Positions 3,474 through 25,335 of a stretch of 32,000 nt of DNA are shown in pieces; positions within the stretch are counted from its first letter, which is position 1, and the number at the start of each line of letters is the position of its first letter. Under the pieces are notes generated by a model. It did no database searches, had not been told where the DNA came from, and worked only from the letters and a program-made list of their open reading frames with translations. The position numbers and the translations under genes are program-made. Source of the stretch: Pseudoalteromonas tetraodonis (GTDB taxonomy: Bacteria > Pseudomonadota > Gammaproteobacteria > Enterobacterales > Alteromonadaceae); NCBI RefSeq assembly GCF_002310835.1, contig NZ_CP011042.1:510001-542000 (forward strand), written 5' to 3'.

Positions 3474-5729
3474 ATGAGTTTACGTACAAAATTAAAAAAA
3501 GTATTACCAAGCATTTCAGTTACTGAGCAAGAAGCGCTAGACGCTGGCGATGTATGGCTAGAAGGGTCTATCTATCGAGGTAAACCAGATTTCAGCGCGC
3601 TACGCGATGTACCTGCGGCTAAATTAACCGCAGACGAGCAAGCGTTCTTAGATGGCCCAGTACAAGAATTACTTGGCATGATTGACGATTCAGTCATTCA
3701 AAATGGTATTCATTTACCAAACGACATTTTAGAGTTTTTGAAAAAAGAGCGTTTCTTCTCGCTGATCATCCCTAAATCGTTTGGCGGTTTAGAGTTCAGC
3801 CCATACGCTAACTCAACAATTGTAGGTACAATTGCTACTAAAAGCTCAGCGGTTGCGGTAACCGTAATGGTACCAAACTCGTTAGGCCCGGGTGAGTTAC
3901 TTCTTCACTTTGGTACAGAGGAGCAACAGGCACACTACTTACCACGTCTTGCAAATGGTACAGACATTCCATGTTTTGCACTAACCAGCCCAGAAGCAGG
4001 CTCTGATGCAGGCGGTATTCCAGATGTAGGTACTGTAACTAAAGGTATGTACAACGGTGAAGAAGTACTCGGCTTAGAAATCACATGGGACAAACGCTAC
4101 ATTACACTCGCGCCAATTGCTACTGTACTTGGTTTAGCGTTTAAAGTGGTTGACCCTGATGGTCTACTAGGTGGTAAAGAAAACCTAGGTATTACCTGTG
4201 CACTTATTCCAAAAGAGCACCCTGGTGTAGAACTTGGTAACCGTCATGATCCTATGGGTATCCGTTTTTACAACGGTACTACACGTGGTAACAAAGTATT
4301 TGTACCAATGGACTTTATTATCGGTGGTCAGAAAAACATCGGTCGCGGTTGGCAAATGCTAGTTAGCTGTTTAGGCGCAGGTCGTGGTATTTCATTACCA
4401 GCATTAGGTGTAAGTACAGCACAAGTTGCATTTAAATCAGCTTCTGAGTACGCAGCAGTGCGTGAACAGTTTGGTTTATCAATTGGTCAATTTGAAGGTA
4501 TTCAAGAAAAGCTAGCTGACATTGCAGGTAAAACATACCTACAAGAAGCAATGCGTGTACTGACAACTGAAGGCTTAGGCATGGGCTTAAAACCATCGGT
4601 AGTGACTGCAATTGCTAAATACCATATGACAGAGCTTGGCCGTGATGTGCTTGACTCAGCAATGGATATTCAAGCGGGTAAAGCGATTCAGAATGGTCCT
4701 CAAAACACGCTTGCTAGTGGTTATGTGGCGCAGCCAATTGCCATTACGGTAGAGGGCGCAAACATTCTGACTCGTAACCTGATGATCTTTGGTCAAGGTG
4801 TTATGCGTTGTCACCCATACTTACAATCTATGGTTGAGTCTATCCACAGCGATGACAAAAACGCAGATGCAGAATTTAATGGTATTTTACGTAAAACAAT
4901 TGGCTACAGTACAGCAAATAGCTTACGTGCATTCCGTTTAGGTGTATTACCGTTTACTGCTGGTGCAAACTCGGCATTACCAGAAGTACGTGACTACGAA
5001 AAAGCAGTGCATAAACTATCAGCTAAATTAGCTGTATATGCTGACTTTTCGTTACTAGTACTTGGCGGTAAATTAAAGCAAGCTGAGATGCTTTCAGCAC
5101 GCTTAGGCGATGTAATGAGCTTCTTATATGCAGCTATGGCATCTATTAAGTATTACGAGCAAAAAGTAGCAAGTAGTGAGCGCGAGCAAGCGGCTCCTTA
5201 CTTCCATTATGCGACTCGTTTTGCATTACAAAGTGCTGAAGAAGCATTGCACAAGTTTTTAGATAACTTCCCTGCAAGTGGTACTCGTAAGTTCATTCGT
5301 TTCATTACCATGAACTACTCAACTAAAATGCCAAAAATCAGCGATGATTTAATTCGTGAATTAGCGAAACAAGCTCAGCTTGATACAGCATTTAAAGCGC
5401 AAATTACCCATTTAGTTAAGCCAATTGAAGGTGATGGTCATCACATCAACGAGCAAGCTTACAAAGCTAAAATGGCGTCACTTGAGTTATTAGCAAAAGT
5501 GAAAAAAGCGCTACGTGCTAAAACCTTTAAGCCGGGTACGCGTTTTTCAATCACACTTGAAAATGCACTTGCTGCAAAAGTAATTAACGACGCTGAATTT
5601 GTTCAGTTAAGTGATTATAACAAAAAGCGTGAAAAAGCGATTCGTGTTGATGAGTTCGACTTCGATATGAACATCCTAGACGACAACGCACAGCCAGTTA
5701 ATCCGCTTAAAAGCGTGGTTAACCAATAA
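3474..5729 (+). CDS. fadE: Large acyl-CoA dehydrogenase (FadE type)
   Basis: 751 aa. It has an acyl-CoA dehydrogenase core (ALTSPEAGSDAG, ITVEGANILTRNL, RCHPY) plus the long C-terminal extension characteristic of FadE-type enzymes. Confidence 0.85.
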   Translation: MSLRTKLKKVLPSISVTEQEALDAGDVWLEGSIYRGKPDFSALRDVPAAKLTADEQAFLDGPVQELLGMIDDSVIQNGIHLPNDILEFLKKERFFSLIIPKSFGGLEFSPYANSTIVGTIATKSSAVAVTVMVPNSLGPGELLLHFGTEEQQAHYLPRLANGTDIPCFALTSPEAGSDAGGIPDVGTVTKGMYNGEEVLGLEITWDKRYITLAPIATVLGLAFKVVDPDGLLGGKENLGITCALIPKEHPGVELGNRHDPMGIRFYNGTTRGNKVFVPMDFIIGGQKNIGRGWQMLVSCLGAGRGISLPALGVSTAQVAFKSASEYAAVREQFGLSIGQFEGIQEKLADIAGKTYLQEAMRVLTTEGLGMGLKPSVVTAIAKYHMTELGRDVLDSAMDIQAGKAIQNGPQNTLASGYVAQPIAITVEGANILTRNLMIFGQGVMRCHPYLQSMVESIHSDDKNADAEFNGILRKTIGYSTANSLRAFRLGVLPFTAGANSALPEVRDYEKAVHKLSAKLAVYADFSLLVLGGKLKQAEMLSARLGDVMSFLYAAMASIKYYEQKVASSEREQAAPYFHYATRFALQSAEEALHKFLDNFPASGTRKFIRFITMNYSTKMPKISDDLIRELAKQAQLDTAFKAQITHLVKPIEGDGHHINEQAYKAKMASLELLAKVKKALRAKTFKPGTRFSITLENALAAKVINDAEFVQLSDYNKKREKAIRVDEFDFDMNILDDNAQPVNPLKSVVNQ

Positions 5730-5743
5730 AATTCAATAATGCA

Positions 5744-5769
5744 AAGCGCCTGCAGTTTAGGCGCTTTTA
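5744..5769 (+). terminator. Rho-independent terminator of fadE; a second hairpin with a T-run follows at about 5790-5827
   Basis: aaagcgcc-tgcagttt-aggcgctttt. The second structure is cctgcttga/tcaagcgggg followed by cttttttat. Confidence 0.7.
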
Positions 5770-6052
5770 TTGATACAAAATTAGTGTGGAGTCCTGCTTG
5801 AGTAACATCAAGCGGGGCTTTTTTATGGGGGTGATTTAAGCTCATAACTAATGACGACTAATTTGATGGTACAGAACATTATTAAACGTTGTTTTAGTGT
5901 ATTTTAACAATGGGTGGTAAATAAGCTACGTAATTACTTGTTTACATTAGAGTTGTTTAGTGGAATTATTGAGCGTATATAATATACGCTGTTTTGAGGG
6001 TTATAACCCCCAAAGTGGTGTTTAATAAGCTGTTATGTTTTAGGGAAAAATT

Positions 6053-18461: not shown

Positions 18462-20240
18462 GTGAATATAGTTAAAGAACTTTTTTTTCAACGAGTTGAA
18501 CAACATTTACATGCTATTTATCAAGATGTTGAATTACCGATAGCAATAAGCGAATTGACTGAAGAATTGATCACCTTAATTTTAGGTGATAACCCACTTC
18601 GCGATCCCACGCCACACACTAACCGCTGGGATGAGCAAGATGTTGTGCTAATTGCCTATGGCGATTCGATAATAAACCATGAAGACAGTGATTTAGCCGT
18701 AGGCACCCCTTTAGAGGCGCCTTTAAAAACCTTGCATCGCTTTATAAAAGAGCAGTGCGATCATCAGCTTAATGCACTGCACATTTTACCCTTTTATCCG
18801 TATAGCTCAGATGAAGGATTTGCGGTAATGAACTATGCACACGTTAATGAAGCGCTGGGTGACTGGCAAGACATTAACGCGATTGCAAAAGATGTAAAAC
18901 TGATGGCGGATTTAGTCATTAATCATTGCTCTAGTCGAAGTATTTGGTTTGAAAACTTTTTAACTGATACACACCCCGGAAAAGATTACTTTAAAACAGC
19001 CAGTTTAACTGACGATTTAAGCCAAGTAGTTCGTCCTCGTACATCGCCACTATTAAATACGGTAACAACAACCAGTGGTGAAAAACATGTATGGTGCACA
19101 TTTAGTCATGATCAAGTGGATTTTGATTTTGAAAATCCCGAGGTGTTAAAAGAGTTTGTCGGCATTATTCGTCATTATTTAGACAACGGTATTCGCTTAT
19201 TTCGCCTTGATGCTGTGGCCTTTTTATGGAAACAACTTAATACCAGTTGTATAAATTTACCGCAAACCCACGAAGTAGTACGTTTATTACGAACGCTGAT
19301 TGAGCATGCCGAGCCAAGTGTGGTGATCATCACCGAGACTAATATTCCCAATCAGGAGAACTTGTCTTACTTTGGTAATGCCAACGAAGCCCATGCAATT
19401 TACAACTTTGCCTTGCCGCCGTTGTTGTTGCATACCTTACTTAGTGGCGATAGTACGGCGCTTAAGCATTGGATGATGAGTATGCCGCCTGCACAAAACG
19501 GCACTGCGTATTTTAATTTTATTGCTTCTCACGATGGCATTGGTTTAAGGCCAATTGAAGGCTTGCTGCAACCCAGTGAGGTTGCTTCATTAGTCAGTAC
19601 CACCATGCAGTTTGGTGGGCGCGTTTCAATGCGTACTAGTCACGATGGCACACATACCCCGTATGAGCTAAATATTGCCTTGTTTGATGCCTTACAAGGG
19701 ACGCATAATGGCGCGGATAAATTTGGCCTTGAGCGCTTTTTATGTGCTCACGCCATTATGTTTGCAATGGAGGGGATCCCAGGGCTGTATATACATAGTT
19801 TACTTGGCACCACTAATGACTATGAACGCTTTGATAATTCGCAGCACAATCGCGCCATTAACCGTCATCGCTGGCAAGAGTCAAAATTATTAGCGGCAAT
19901 TGCAGAAAAATATAGTCATCATCATCAAGTATTCAACGGAGTAAAACAGTTATTAGCAGTGCGTAAAAGGCAAGCGGCATTTCATCCTAATGCAACACAG
20001 TTCACTTTGCATTTAGGAGAGGGGTTATTTGGTTTTTGGCGACAAAGCATTGACCGCCAGCAAAGTATTTTTTGTATTTATAATATCAGCAGTCAGCCAC
20101 AAAGCTTAACCTTGGCCGATTTGAACTTAATAAATACACAGCAATGGTATGAGCTGCTCTCTAAAACAGTGCTGGATGAAGAGCTTAAAACTATGCAATT
20201 AGCACCGTATCAAACACTCTGGTTATCTAATAGAGCATAA
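18462..20240 (+). CDS. GH13_18 sucrose-phosphorylase-family enzyme (candidate glucosylglycerate phosphorylase)
   Basis: Alpha-amylase-family catalytic regions are present ([30 protein letters not shown]). Length 592 aa. GTG start with GAGG 6 nt upstream. Confidence 0.75.
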
Positions 20241-20261
20241 ATAACGACGTTTAAAGTAATC

Positions 20262-20294
20262 AATGTAACTGTAAAGGGGCTTTACAGTTACATT
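20262..20294. terminator. Bidirectional terminator hairpin between convergent genes
   Basis: aatgtaactgtaaag-ggg-ctttacagttacatt: a perfect 15-bp stem. Confidence 0.75.
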
Positions 20295-21372
20295 ACTCAA
20301 GCGCGAGTAGTAAGTTCTCTATAGTAAATTCAACTTTGTCTGGGCGGGTTTTACTAAACTGCGAAAAGTCTATTTCGGCTAGATTATTCGCATTAATTGC
20401 ATTATATAAAGGCTTATTTGTATCGTTGAGTGGCTGAAAAATATCATTAGTGCTGTGAAAAAGTGGCCAACGCTTTAAATCAGTATGGTTATCAAATAAG
20501 TTTATAATTGCATGAGCCCCTAATAAAACATGACCCCCTATCGATATATCAAGCGCGTATGCGTTATTAGGCGCAGAATCCCAGTTAATCCCACCCACAA
20601 AAACCTGCGATTGTTTGTTTAGTTGGGTTAATGCTCTTTTAGCACCAAACGCAATGGCATCATTAGCGCACCAAATAATGTTAATTTCAGGCGCAAGTTG
20701 CATATAGGCCATGGTTTTTATATAGCCTTCTTGCTCAGACCAATTTGCAACCTCTTTAGCGGTTAAGGTTACTTTGGGTGTTTGCGCTAAAAAATCCATT
20801 AACCCTTGGGTACGTAAAGTGGAAGCAGGGGTTGTGTAGTCCCCTAGTAAAGCTAATGTATGAGCTGGCGTTTTTGTTTTATTGGTAAACTTTTTATAAA
20901 GCTGCTGCATCAATGATTTACCTGCAACACGATTATTTGGGGTAATACTGCCGACCACATTGACGCCATTTTTTTGCAATTGCTCGAGAGACGCAGGGGA
21001 AGGGCGATTTAATAAAAAATAAATGGGAACCTTGTTACTGTCTATTTTAGATAGGTATTGGCTGGTGACATTTTTTTCGTTTACTAATATCAGATAATCA
21101 GGCTTATCGTTAATGGCCTGCTGGATCAGCTCTTTCATTAAAATATGATTTCGGTTGGCGTACTTTATAGTTAATGTCACATCTAAATCAGTGGCAGCAT
21201 TTTGCATAATTTTAGAAACATGAAACCAAAAATCACCTGTTTTATTGCTCTCAGCCTCAATGGAATTTGAAAAGCCAGGATTGATGAATATGATCTCTAA
21301 GGCATTAATACTGTAACTACTGAATAGCAGGCAGGTATAAGTTATCAGGCGGTATAATTTAAACAAAGGCAT
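20293..21372 (-). CDS. Periplasmic binding protein, type-1 (sugar-binding/LacI-like fold), orphan
   Basis: N-terminal signal-like segment and a length of about 360 aa. The alternating beta-alpha pattern with VGSITPNN / VGGINWD stretches is typical of PBP1 sugar binders. No ABC permease or ATPase lies adjacent. Confidence 0.5.
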   Translation of the reverse strand: MPLFKLYRLITYTCLLFSSYSINALEIIFINPGFSNSIEAESNKTGDFWFHVSKIMQNAATDLDVTLTIKYANRNHILMKELIQQAINDKPDYLILVNEKNVTSQYLSKIDSNKVPIYFLLNRPSPASLEQLQKNGVNVVGSITPNNRVAGKSLMQQLYKKFTNKTKTPAHTLALLGDYTTPASTLRTQGLMDFLAQTPKVTLTAKEVANWSEQEGYIKTMAYMQLAPEINIIWCANDAIAFGAKRALTQLNKQSQVFVGGINWDSAPNNAYALDISIGGHVLLGAHAIINLFDNHTDLKRWPLFHSTNDIFQPLNDTNKPLYNAINANNLAEIDFSQFSKTRPDKVEFTIENLLLALE

Positions 21373-22347: not shown

Positions 22348-22482
22348 CTATTTTTTCTTCATACCCTGTACGGCCTTAAATCTAGGATTATCTTTACATA
22401 TCACGAACACGCGCCCTTTACGCTTTACAATTTGACAACCAGGTCGTTGCTTTGCGCTTTTTAATGAACTTAATACTTTCAT
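22348..22482 (-). CDS. ykgO: Ribosomal protein L36 paralog, type B (Zn-ribbon lost); absent from the ORF track
   Basis: My own translation of the minus strand gives [44 protein letters not shown]. This is nearly collinear with E. coli YkgO. ATG 22482 overlaps the rpmE2 stop (ATGA). Confidence 0.9.
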
Positions 22483-22745
22483 TTGCTTTCCTTTTTAGCC
22501 GAAGATAAGTTTTTAAAACGACGATTAAATTGCGCAACGCGGCCATCAGATGCGAGCGTTTTTTGTTTGCCTGTATAAAATGGGTGTGAGTCAGATGAAA
22601 CATCAATAGGCACATAGGGATATGTATTACCGTCTATTTCGATAGTGCGGTCGGTTTTGATGGTTGAACCTATAATGAAATATGAATCGGCTGCAGTATC
22701 ATGAAAAGCAACCACATGGTAATCAGGGTGAATATTTGGTTTCAT
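22479..22745 (-). CDS. ykgM: Ribosomal protein L31 paralog, type B (no CxxC Zn motif)
   Basis: MKPNIHPDY...HPFYTG matches the L31 signature. The translation contains no cysteines, as expected for type B. Confidence 0.9.
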
Positions 22746-22997: not shown

Positions 22998-23267
22998 ATG
23001 AGTGACGCTCAAACGAAACAGGACCAAATCGACCAAGGAGTTATGGACACTCTTAGGGAGCGCGATCATAGTGTATTGGCAAAACAAGTTGACTCACTCG
23101 CATGTTCTCATAACGATATCATTGAATTGCTTGCTCATTATTTAGCATTAAGCGAACAAGAAGATGATGAGTTATTTGATGACTGGTTTGACTCTCTTTC
23201 AAAAGAACAACACACCGTGCTAAAAGTATTTGAAGTATATCGCGGACAGTATGAGCACCAAAACTAA
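22998..23267 (+). CDS. Small acidic hypothetical protein
   Basis: 89-aa ORF preceded by AGAGG. The C-terminal half is strongly acidic (SEQEDDELFDDWFD). No recognised family. Confidence 0.5.
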   Translation: MSDAQTKQDQIDQGVMDTLRERDHSVLAKQVDSLACSHNDIIELLAHYLALSEQEDDELFDDWFDSLSKEQHTVLKVFEVYRGQYEHQN

Positions 23268-23544
23268 CTGTTTGTATTAGGCATATTAATTAGTCATTAT
23301 ACTAACACTGGCTATACGATTGTAATTTAATGTTATAAAGGCATTGTTTTTATAGATAAGCGAAATAATTAATTACACTTATTCAATACAATAGTATGTA
23401 CTTTGTCCCTTGATTATTTTTAAACTAACTAATTGATGTTTAAAGCTTTATAATAAGTTAAACTACATTTAGTGTTAAAATAGTAGTTTCGGCTCGTAGT
23501 TGAACTACCATTAATAAGTTGAAATAAGAAAGGGATAATTCAGC

Positions 23545-24351
23545 ATGCAACATTTAAATGAAATACTCAGCAGAAACAACGTCAAAATAATTGGCAAGGG
23601 TAATAAAACCTTGGTGTTGGCTCACGGATTTGGTTGCGACCAAAACATGTGGCGATTTATTATTCCTGCCCTTGAACAACATTTTACTTTAGTGCTGTTT
23701 GATTATGTAGGCTCAGGTAACTCTGATGTGTCTAAATATAATAAACAGCGCTACTCAACCCTTGATGGGTATGCCAAAGACGTACTAGAAATATGTGCCG
23801 CACTTGAACTTACCGATATTACATTTATAGGCCACTCGGTTAGTGGCACCATTGGCGCACTTGCTGCCATTGAGCAACCAGAGCTATTTTCTAAGCTGGT
23901 TATGGTGTGCCCCTCACCGTGCTTTTTAAATTTACCCCCTGATTATTTTGGTGGATTTGAAAAACAAGACCTTCACGAATTACTAAACCTAATGGATAAA
24001 AATTACATTGGTTGGGCAAATTATTTAGCGCCTCTAGTAATGGGCAACTCTCATCCAGATGAATTTATAGCGGAACTATCGGGAAGTTTTTGCTCAACAG
24101 ATCCCCTTATTGCAAAAACCTTTGCAGAAGCCACGTTTTTATCCGACTACCGTTTTATACTTGAACATATAAAACAGCCTACTTTAATTTTACAAAGTGA
24201 AAATGATGCTTTAGCCGCGCCTTCTGTTGGGGAGTTTGTAGCGAATGAAATTTCAAATGCAACACTTAAGGTTATTAGTGCGCATGGCCACTGTATTCAT
24301 ATGACGCACCCAGAAACAGTCAGCCGTTTAATTTTTGATTTTGTGAGTTAG
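23545..24351 (+). CDS. RsbQ/D14/KAI2-type alpha/beta hydrolase
   Basis: VLAHGFGCDQNMW and FDYVGSGNSD are present, with the nucleophile elbow IGHSVSG. Asp is in SENDALA and His in HGHCIHMTHPE. The pattern is collinear with B. subtilis RsbQ and plant D14/KAI2. Confidence 0.75.
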   Translation: MQHLNEILSRNNVKIIGKGNKTLVLAHGFGCDQNMWRFIIPALEQHFTLVLFDYVGSGNSDVSKYNKQRYSTLDGYAKDVLEICAALELTDITFIGHSVSGTIGALAAIEQPELFSKLVMVCPSPCFLNLPPDYFGGFEKQDLHELLNLMDKNYIGWANYLAPLVMGNSHPDEFIAELSGSFCSTDPLIAKTFAEATFLSDYRFILEHIKQPTLILQSENDALAAPSVGEFVANEISNATLKVISAHGHCIHMTHPETVSRLIFDFVS

Positions 24352-24355
24352 CCAC

Positions 24356-25267
24356 ATGTCACTTGATAAAGTAGATGAAAAGCTTGCTGATTATTCCGCA
24401 GATCACTTTTTAAATGGTGCATTAGTGACAAATGCAGATAACATTATTGTTTATGCAAATACTTATTTTCAAAAGGAATTACAGTGGAATTGTAATGAGC
24501 TTATTGGCAAGTCGGTTGATAAAATTATAACTAAATCATCAAAAATATTTTTACAAAGTTATGTGCTTCCTACCTTACTGCATGAAAAAGCGTGTCAAGA
24601 AATGCAGTTAATTATGCTCAGCGCCCAAGGCGAGCGTATGGCCGTTACCGTTAATGCTCAGCTTGATGAAAAGGGCTATATATACTGGAGCTTTTTTAAC
24701 GCGACTCAGCGAGATAAGCTTTACGACGAGCTGATTAAAACACGGGAAAAGTTAGAAGCGCAAACTGAACGCTTACAATCTTTAGCGTCTACCGATGAGT
24801 TAACCAATTTATTAAATAGAAGAGAGATGAATTGCCGCAGCGTGCTGTTACTCGAACAGGCTATGCGATCAAAGCAGTCGGTTGCATTGTTAATTATCGA
24901 TATTGATAATTTTAAAGTCGTTAATGATACCTTTGGGCATTTAGAAGGGGATCGAGTTTTAAAAGAGTTGGGGCAACGTCTTAAACATTTTGGTCGACAA
25001 ACCGACCTTATTTCTCGTTACGGCGGTGAAGAGTTTTTAATTATGGTGCCAGATACAAATAAAGCAGATACTTTGTCATTTTGCCAAAGGCTGCATTTAT
25101 TAATTGCTGAAATTAAAGTAGGTAATCGCCCAGTAACCGCCAGTATTGGGGCAAGTTTGAGTACTGCGAAAACGACGTTTACTGATTTATTTGCCCAAGC
25201 CGATAATGCGGTATATGAAGCCAAAGAGCGCGGAAAAAACAGAACCCAATTATACGATAACCCCTAA
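24356..25267 (+). CDS. PAS-GGDEF diguanylate cyclase
   Basis: N-terminal PAS-like region of about 120 aa, then a coiled linker and a GGDEF domain. The active site is RYGGEEF, and an RQTD I-site sits at the canonical spacing. The gene starts 4 nt after the hydrolase stop. Confidence 0.8.
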   Translation: MSLDKVDEKLADYSADHFLNGALVTNADNIIVYANTYFQKELQWNCNELIGKSVDKIITKSSKIFLQSYVLPTLLHEKACQEMQLIMLSAQGERMAVTVNAQLDEKGYIYWSFFNATQRDKLYDELIKTREKLEAQTERLQSLASTDELTNLLNRREMNCRSVLLLEQAMRSKQSVALLIIDIDNFKVVNDTFGHLEGDRVLKELGQRLKHFGRQTDLISRYGGEEFLIMVPDTNKADTLSFCQRLHLLIAEIKVGNRPVTASIGASLSTAKTTFTDLFAQADNAVYEAKERGKNRTQLYDNP

Positions 25268-25335
25268 CTAAATAGAGGTAAACTCAACAAGGTATTGAGT
25301 TGAGTTTACTCAAAAGATGGCAGTTATAGTTGGTA

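Follow-up and report, generated by a model that had tools for sequence, protein, structure and literature searches.

Does a two-gene cassette of the marine bacterium Pseudoalteromonas tetraodonis pass a small-molecule signal, read by a hydrolase, to the synthesis of cyclic di-GMP (c-di-GMP)? The question is raised by a 32,000-nucleotide (nt) stretch of its genome (NCBI RefSeq assembly GCF_002310835.1, contig NZ_CP011042.1, positions 510,001 to 542,000, forward strand), referred to here as the window, in which a gene for an alpha/beta hydrolase resembling Bacillus subtilis RsbQ is followed by a gene for a protein with a PAS domain, a signalling helix and a GGDEF domain. An earlier note, made from the sequence alone, had read this pair as the sensing logic of RsbQ and its PAS-containing partner RsbP rewired to c-di-GMP. 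We present here, as observed, the domain identities and how far the catalytic residues, the interface residues and the gene pairing are conserved, together with a proposed five-step mechanism. We consider it likely that the cassette is a cytoplasmic RsbQ-PAS small-molecule sensor with a c-di-GMP output, its c-di-GMP synthase being probably under the control of the RsbQ/KAI2-like hydrolase.

Judged by its sequence, the hydrolase is a member of the RsbQ/KAI2/D14 (DKR) clade. Pfam gives the generic alpha/beta-hydrolase fold (Abhydrolase_1, E=7e-27). In a PDB search, the top solved structure was 3qvm from Oleispira antarctica (E=1e-111), followed by B. subtilis RsbQ (1wom, E=3e-90), and more than 50 chains of KAI2, D14, DAD2 and HTL matched over about 255 residues (E=1e-61 to 1e-45); the best match from outside the RsbQ/KAI2/D14 clade reached 1e-15. 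The hydrolase is 59% identical to 3qvm and 50% identical to RsbQ, and the three-way alignment has zero gaps, lid segment included; the structural argument rests on this match to two crystal structures (3qvm and 1wom). Across 82 aligned hydrolases, the lid region has 0 to 1 gap per sequence. Identity as a metabolic lactonase (PcaD, BioH or RutD) was considered and rejected, the NCBIfam scores being about 93 bits or less against cut-offs of 207 to 430.

The triad Ser98-Asp221-His249 aligns exactly with S96, D219 and H247 of RsbQ. Its conservation was followed in a scan of one genome per species with the hydrolase alignment, which found at least 565 genomes with a relative; locus counts given here cover the best 80 of these at least 565 hydrolase loci (Table 1). 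At one locus, L008 (Glaciecola sp. KUL10, hydrolase at 5001-5783), Asn stands at the catalytic His and the PAS-GGDEF partner is intact. From its sequence this hydrolase may be a natural non-catalytic receptor variant, and it bears on the question of whether signalling needs turnover.

The pocket residues highlighted for RsbQ are F27, Y125, L144 and F197; their equivalents here are F29, F127, L146 and L199, two of them identical and two conservative. A ligand pocket is expected in this hydrolase because all four residues remain hydrophobic. B. subtilis RsbQ binds and hydrolyses butenolides, which covalently modify its catalytic His247 (10.1101/2023.12.05.570042), and a proteobacterial RsbQ, from Stenotrophomonas, binds and hydrolyses strigolactone analogues. 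By analogy, the P. tetraodonis hydrolase may bind and hydrolyse ligands of the butenolide type. The earlier note had called the ligand unknown; the butenolide binding and hydrolysis shown since for these two RsbQ proteins address this in part, though not for the native activating ligand.

The second question is whether the neighbouring PAS domain is of the kind that RsbQ proteins work with. Generic Pfam PAS models match it weakly (E=3e-4, under the gathering score), whereas a class-specific profile recovers it readily. This profile was built from 48 PAS domains of kinase- or phosphatase-type partners only, with the P. tetraodonis protein and its relatives excluded, and the PAS domain of the window scores 83.5 bits on it (E=8e-25). 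Within a background of 1,394 open reading frames (ORFs), PAS proteins that are not adjacent to a hydrolase do not exceed 32 bits, apart from one in L071, an Oceanospirillaceae metagenome-assembled genome (MAG). There, a PAS kinase downstream of the hydrolase (L071:1971-3518, plus strand) scores 108 bits, and a convergent hybrid kinase-receiver beside it (L071:3541-5097, minus strand) scores 71 bits. Identity to the RsbP PAS domain is 28%, with a pairwise E of 1e-13.

Five features have been given for the RsbP-PAS class, namely adjacency to an RsbQ homologue, an N-terminal PAS domain, a conserved F-alpha helix, absence of a DIT motif and a coiled-coil linker (PMC3183031). All five are present here, the linker as a predicted helix, and the PAS-to-helix junction, F-N-A-T-Q-R-D-K-L-Y, lacks the canonical DIT motif. 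A model of the protein made with AlphaFold 2 (AF2) from 67 orthologues (mean predicted local distance difference test score, 88.5) has a five-stranded PAS core with strands at residues 22-25, 30-34, 79-88, 94-103 and 109-115. An exhaustive HMMER search with PAS plus linker returned 237 representative clusters at E<=1e-3, in which the match was nearly always N-terminal (150 listed relatives) and mostly in proteins of about 300 amino acids (aa); a search with the PAS domain only, in a word-indexed protein database, returned just 7 near-identical fragments.

The residues that RsbP needs for RsbQ binding and signalling are also kept. The PAS domain was aligned with 62 partners encoded next to a hydrolase, among them a pair of RsbP orthologues from Bacillaceae that share the B. 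subtilis numbering. The F-alpha motif reads K63-I-F65-L-Q-S-Y69-V-L-P72, in which F65, Y69 and P72, the last a near-invariant Pro, correspond to RsbP F55, Y59 and P62; E82 corresponds to E72, and all four are invariant across 67 cyclase orthologues. I58 replaces L48, a conservative change, and K63 replaces Q53, where a basic residue is the class consensus. In B. subtilis, RsbQ directly binds RsbP-PAS, F55A abolishes binding and signalling, and Ala at L48, F55, Y59 or E72 is null (PMC3183031); all four of these Ala-null positions are retained, L48 as Ile58. The PAS domain is assigned on its sequence to the RsbP-PAS class.

The output domain is predicted, at the motif level, to be that of an active, product-inhibited cyclase. 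The AF2 model continues from the PAS domain into a single helix of 30 residues, against a class requirement of at least 21, with Leu126, Leu133 and Leu140 at seven-residue spacing and heptad positions conserved across the class; the helix is presumed to form a parallel coiled coil in a dimer. The GGDEF domain that follows aligns throughout with PadC (5llw) and PleD. Its RxxD I-site lies five residues upstream of the active-site GGEEF, with R214 present in 65 of 67 orthologues and D217 in all 67, and none of these orthologues differs at the catalytic-core residues D182, D184, N190, D199 and R221. The alternative of a GGDEF domain that is degenerate or acts as a receptor only was rejected at motif level. 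The top full-length fold matches to the AF2 model are PA0861 (PAS-GGDEF-EAL), the LOV-activated 8c05 and the phytochrome-activated 5llw.

To this point the earlier note has held up well. It had placed the PAS gene 4 nt after the hydrolase gene, and both ORFs were found there, on the plus strand; its triad motifs, GHSVSG, ENDALA and HGHCIHM, are present and the triad is intact; the collinearity that it claimed with RsbQ, KAI2 and D14 is borne out by full-length alignments to solved structures; and its PAS protein falls into the RsbP-PAS class on the class-specific profile. The catalytic competence that it ascribed to the GGDEF domain, from GGEEF and RxxD, extends to the core residues, as a reading of motifs.

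Whether the two genes belong together was addressed by the pairing itself. With partners called by profile hidden Markov model (for 11, the longest-ORF start overlaps the hydrolase gene by more than 60 nt), a class PAS lies immediately downstream of the hydrolase in 71 loci, and a class PAS-GGDEF-EAL protein lies immediately upstream in 2. Of the 79 species genomes that could be assessed, which span several phyla, 73 thus carry the pairing (one further locus ends at the hydrolase), an adjacency of hydrolase and PAS far beyond chance. The closest genome match is a Psychromonas pair (hydrolase 68% and cyclase 58% identical). Starting from cyclase orthologues in Shewanella, Colwellia, Paraglaciecola and Psychromonas, an alpha/beta hydrolase was found directly upstream in 4 of 4, with a length of 268 to 272 aa, a gap of -20 to +5 nt and unrelated flanking genes. 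The note had named loss of this neighbourhood outside the lineage as grounds for giving up its reading; the two genes stay adjacent far beyond this lineage.

Outputs among the partners vary. Pfam matches among 68 downstream ORFs comprise 39 histidine kinases (HK), 15 GGDEF, 3 SpoIIE/PPM and 3 STAS proteins. Two of the three STAS partners were individually confirmed, in Pyrinomonadaceae MAGs (L019:2834-3619 and L031:5830-6630), as class PAS domains fused to STAS in proteins of 262 and 267 aa; this anti-sigma-antagonist-like output is outside the three output classes of the 2011 catalogue (PMC3183031). The two loci with inverted order are those of Vreelandella aquamarina (L007:3230-4966) and a Pseudomonas MAG (L009:3007-4992).

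These comparative data strongly disfavour the view that the hydrolase is a metabolic esterase or lactonase merely sharing an operon with a PAS-GGDEF protein that senses oxygen, redox or light alone. Generic annotation and family models do give just "alpha/beta hydrolase" and "GGDEF", and the nearest structure, 3qvm, comes from structural genomics and has not been given a signalling role. The pairing, however, outlasts changes of phylum, output domain and flanking genes, with no co-conserved metabolic genes; the partner PAS is always of one subclass, which is not found in PAS proteins away from the hydrolase, the exception being L071; and the residues on which RsbQ binding depends in B. subtilis do not vary among the cyclase orthologues. 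We regard mere neighbourhood as highly improbable.

How the hydrolase would act on the cyclase can be set out in five steps. That the two proteins touch, which way the regulation runs and what kind of ligand is involved are all inferred, by comparison with B. subtilis RsbQ/RsbP and with structures of sensor-coil-GGDEF proteins. First, a small hydrophobic ligand, a butenolide-like ester or lactone, would be bound in the pocket beneath the lid of the hydrolase and probably hydrolysed there by means of the Ser98-Asp221-His249 triad. The ligand state would then alter how the hydrolase docks on the F-alpha face of the PAS domain, at F65 and Y69, and where the linker begins, within a dimeric PAS-helix-GGDEF protein. 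This change in docking would, in a third step, make the coiled coil of the 30-residue linker shift in register or in rigidity and, in a fourth, move the GGDEF pair into or out of the antiparallel arrangement in which two GTP are condensed to c-di-GMP. Product bound at the RxxD I-site would finally cap the output. An AF2 model of a 2:2 RsbP/RsbQ complex places RsbQ at the interface of PAS and linker, and the coiled-coil linker model covers PAS, PPM, HK and GGDEF proteins (PMC12143880).

Two other mechanisms bear on the same evidence. Model 1 of Nadezhdin et al. casts the hydrolase as an enzyme and not as the receptor: it would convert a precursor and pass the product, or a cofactor-like ligand, into the PAS cavity, and PAS would be the true sensor gating the cyclase. 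The triad is intact in 79 of 80 homologues, B. subtilis triad mutants are null, as expected if turnover matters, and the full five-strand PAS core could hold a ligand; the 2011 study left both of its models open (PMC3183031). Yet of the residues probed, the two that face the cavity in a computational model of RsbP-PAS, Q53 and C56, tolerate Ala and the outward F55 and Y59 are essential (PMC3183031), and plant receptors and RsbQ keep a covalent His adduct and shift conformation on hydrolysis, which fits a receptor role (10.1101/2023.12.05.570042). The Asn in place of the catalytic His in the L008 pair also argues that catalysis is not always needed. Delivery of a product into the PAS domain is, in our judgement, rather unlikely, and we prefer the hydrolase as a ligand-dependent docking partner.

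The second mechanism keeps the docking partner and reverses its sign, the hydrolase holding the cyclase inactive until ligand binding or hydrolysis releases it. In the LOV-activated cyclase 8c05, which ranks second among structural matches to the AF2 model, dark-state sensor domains reportedly cage the GGDEF dimer, and this counts in favour of such de-repression. So does the finding that exogenous butenolides turn RsbQ signalling off in B. subtilis (10.1101/2023.12.05.570042). Against it, RsbQ acts positively in B. subtilis, where RsbP activity depends on it (PMC3183031). We think de-repression unlikely, though worth keeping in mind beside the activating sensor proposed above.

Several observations weigh against that proposed sensor. 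Two pocket residues differ from RsbQ (Y125 to F127 and F197 to L199), and the ligand may therefore differ from that of RsbQ. In B. subtilis, butenolides inhibit RsbQ signalling and do not activate it, which leaves doubt about both the class of ligand and the sign of regulation. The PAS domain departs from the class consensus at 2 of 9 probed positions. One is the hPhG motif, F-L-N-G here versus A-P-C10-G in RsbP; about 80% of class members have its Cys, the orthologues vary there (P/Q/L and C/S/N), and in RsbP the effect of C10A is no more than mild (PMC3183031). The other is Ala96 at the position of RsbP P86, which is P in 81%, A in 10% and G in 8% of partner PAS domains; P86A strongly weakens RsbP signalling and leaves a weak response (PMC3183031). 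Going by the alignment, FLNG and Ala96 are minority variants at consensus positions that do not define the class. The marine proteobacterial subgroup as a whole scores 42 to 92 bits on the class profile versus 150 to 220 for the main group. Co-transcription of the two genes is inferred from their 4-nt spacing, its sole basis, and literature searches found no functional study of any GGDEF-type pair, in agreement with the earlier note.

The features of the locus are listed in Table 1. The hydrolase and cyclase genes, joined as TAG-ccac-ATG on the same strand, probably form a co-transcribed two-gene unit. The leader contains a single sigma-70-like match (23511-23539), with no enrichment of promoter-like matches over shuffled sequence (8 found, 9.3 expected). 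Rfam families gave zero matches in the leader or anywhere in the window, and we therefore see no riboswitch. A terminator scan found no canonical terminator 3' of the cyclase gene; the hairpin there is modest (-17.3 kcal/mol, z=-2.06) and escaped the scan because its plus strand has no T-run. It is a possible bidirectional terminator on weak evidence.

Table 1. Coordinates of the cassette and its features, given as positions in the window
Feature	Position	Strand	Basis
AT-rich leader, 277 nt, presumed operon promoter region	23268..23544	+	Sequence reading
RsbQ/KAI2/D14-clade alpha/beta hydrolase, 268 aa	23545..24351	+	ORF, Abhydrolase_1, PDB matches
Nucleophile Ser98 codon (GHSVSG), equivalent to RsbQ Ser96	23836..23838	+	Three-way alignment; kept in 80/80 loci
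Catalytic Asp221 codon (ENDALA), equivalent to RsbQ Asp219	24205..24207	+	Three-way alignment; kept in 80/80 loci
Catalytic His249 codon (HGHCIHM), equivalent to RsbQ His247	24289..24291	+	Three-way alignment; His in 79/80 loci
PAS - signalling helix - GGDEF protein, 303 aa	24356..25267	+	ORF, GGDEF, AF2 model
RsbP-PAS-class PAS domain, about residues 14-115 of 303	24395..24700	+	62-partner alignment, profile, AF2 strands
F-alpha helix, residues 60-77, predicted hydrolase-contact surface	24533..24586	+	AF2 model, alignment
Linker helix, residues 116-145 (30 residues)	24701..24790	+	Single AF2 helix
GGDEF catalytic domain, residues 146-299	24791..25252	+	Pfam GGDEF, residues 144-296, E=9e-42
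I-site RQTD (R214..D217), putative allosteric c-di-GMP product inhibition	24995..25006	+	RxxD motif
Active-site GGEEF, residues 223-227	25022..25036	+	Invariant in 67/67 orthologues
12-bp inverted repeat between convergent cyclase and ydjM-like genes	25277..25310	.	RNA fold

Directly 5' of the leader lies an acidic ORF of 89 aa (22998-23267, plus strand), for which Pfam and NCBIfam searches gave no match. It is kept in 6 of 6 Pseudoalteromonas contigs and absent beside the pair in other genera. As a third component, neither this ORF nor any other neighbour qualifies, none being conserved with the pair outside Pseudoalteromonas; the unit is therefore the two genes alone. No second copy of the hydrolase or cyclase gene was found elsewhere in the window, and a plasmid collection search gave no match. 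Three NCBI assemblies and many metagenomes contain the identical cyclase sequence, in the same neighbourhood every time, and its 90%-identity cluster and nearest relatives carry the name Pseudoalteromonas. One complete replicon with the identical locus is CP152391.1 (L084, 723,540 bp). From the size of this replicon, 723 kb, we presume that the cassette is on the small second chromosome typical of Pseudoalteromonas. Further upstream, paralogues of ribosomal proteins L36 and L31 (Pfam labels) stand side by side outside any ribosomal operon (22350-22745, minus strand); they are probably the zinc-independent forms that are expressed under zinc limitation. An alpha-amylase-family gene (592 aa, plus strand) lies beside a divergent periplasmic-binding-protein-like gene (359 aa, minus strand) at 18462-21372, 5' of cytochrome b562-like and OsmC-like genes, and is unrelated to the cassette, as are these neighbours.

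The locus can be compared with four known systems. RsbQ and RsbP form the energy-stress branch of sigma-B activation in B. subtilis. The P. tetraodonis hydrolase resembles RsbQ in its triad and lid length, and its partner resembles RsbP in having a homologous PAS domain with the essential residues kept and a layout of PAS, coiled-coil linker and dimeric effector. In contrast to RsbP, the output is a GGDEF domain and not a PPM phosphatase, giving c-di-GMP in place of sigma-B partner switching; the host is a Gram-negative marine bacterium, and pocket residues Y125 and F197 are F and L. Plant KAI2 and D14 share the hydrolase clade, the triad, the V-shaped four-helix lid and the receptor-enzyme logic. 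They signal through recruitment of the F-box protein MAX2 together with SMAX1/SMXL repressors, which are then degraded. The partner in the P. tetraodonis cassette is instead a PAS domain carried on an enzyme, and nothing at this locus points to strigolactone or karrikin as ligand. Similarity to LadC (8c05), PadC (5llw) and PA0861/RbdA (5xgd) extends to a GGDEF domain of 25 to 28% identity and a helical linker that enters at a DxLT motif; the sensors of those proteins bind their own chromophore or ligand, whereas here sensing is split onto a separate hydrolase.

The fourth system is the RsbQ-PAS module itself, which was described in 2011 in Gram-positive and Gram-negative bacteria with diguanylate cyclase as one of three output classes (PMC3183031; Nadezhdin, Brody and Price 2011, PLoS One) and whose output diversity, diguanylate cyclase included, was restated in a 2025 eLife paper (PMC12143880). 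The 2011 catalogue gives Psychromonas ingrahamii A1SVT3 as an example of a PAS-coil-GGDEF protein, and the P. tetraodonis cassette shares with the Psychromonas module a hydrolase immediately upstream, an N-terminal PAS domain, a helical linker, a single GGDEF domain and the same F-alpha residues (PMC3183031). It differs from the 2011 module in its host, Pseudoalteromonas, in an hPhG motif without Pro-Cys and in Ala at the equivalent of Pro86, which is within-family variation and not a new architecture. The earlier note had said that RsbQ-PAS pairings with other outputs were known, correctly but with understatement, as the catalogue already lists the cyclase; its reading of a rewiring to c-di-GMP is likewise supported, though not new. 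Literature searches found no mention of Pseudoalteromonas together with RsbQ, and the text of PMC3183031 does not name the genus. The locus is a new, clean and well-conserved example of an architecture catalogued since 2011, no discovery, and would not surprise a specialist.

What the cassette means for the organism can be taken at two levels. Plainly, it adds a further well-conserved case, accessible to experiment, from a marine genus that can be cultured, and the ligand question is not opened here. A more speculative reading, which we consider doubtful at present, is that a subgroup of marine Alteromonadales (Pseudoalteromonas, Colwellia, Shewanella, Psychromonas and Paraglaciecola) perceives a different, ocean-relevant butenolide or lactone cue, for example algal or bacterial, and converts it directly into c-di-GMP-controlled surface colonisation. 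Most members of this subgroup have Phe for the selectivity-linked RsbQ Tyr125, their PAS domains are divergent, and the P. tetraodonis hydrolase has Leu for the pocket-occluding RsbQ Phe197. At the Tyr125 position (residue 127, 23923-23925), whose equivalent in KAI2 is tied to ligand selectivity, Phe is present in 10 of 14 GGDEF-linked hydrolases and Tyr in 47 of 48 that are linked to a kinase or phosphatase. This split by output class is confounded with phylogeny, because every Phe form is proteobacterial. If true, perception of an ocean cue would place a bacterial system with a second messenger beside plant KAI2/D14 signalling as its counterpart and would offer a way towards the native ligand of the RsbQ/KAI2 clade as a whole, a long-standing unknown in bacteria and plants. 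The pair of hydrolase and PAS-GGDEF protein has an enzymatic read-out, c-di-GMP synthesis, that is easily reconstituted in vitro, and could therefore serve as a practical assay for activating ligands. It could also be used to test how a coiled-coil linker lets a single PAS/hydrolase input drive three or four outputs that are unrelated to one another.

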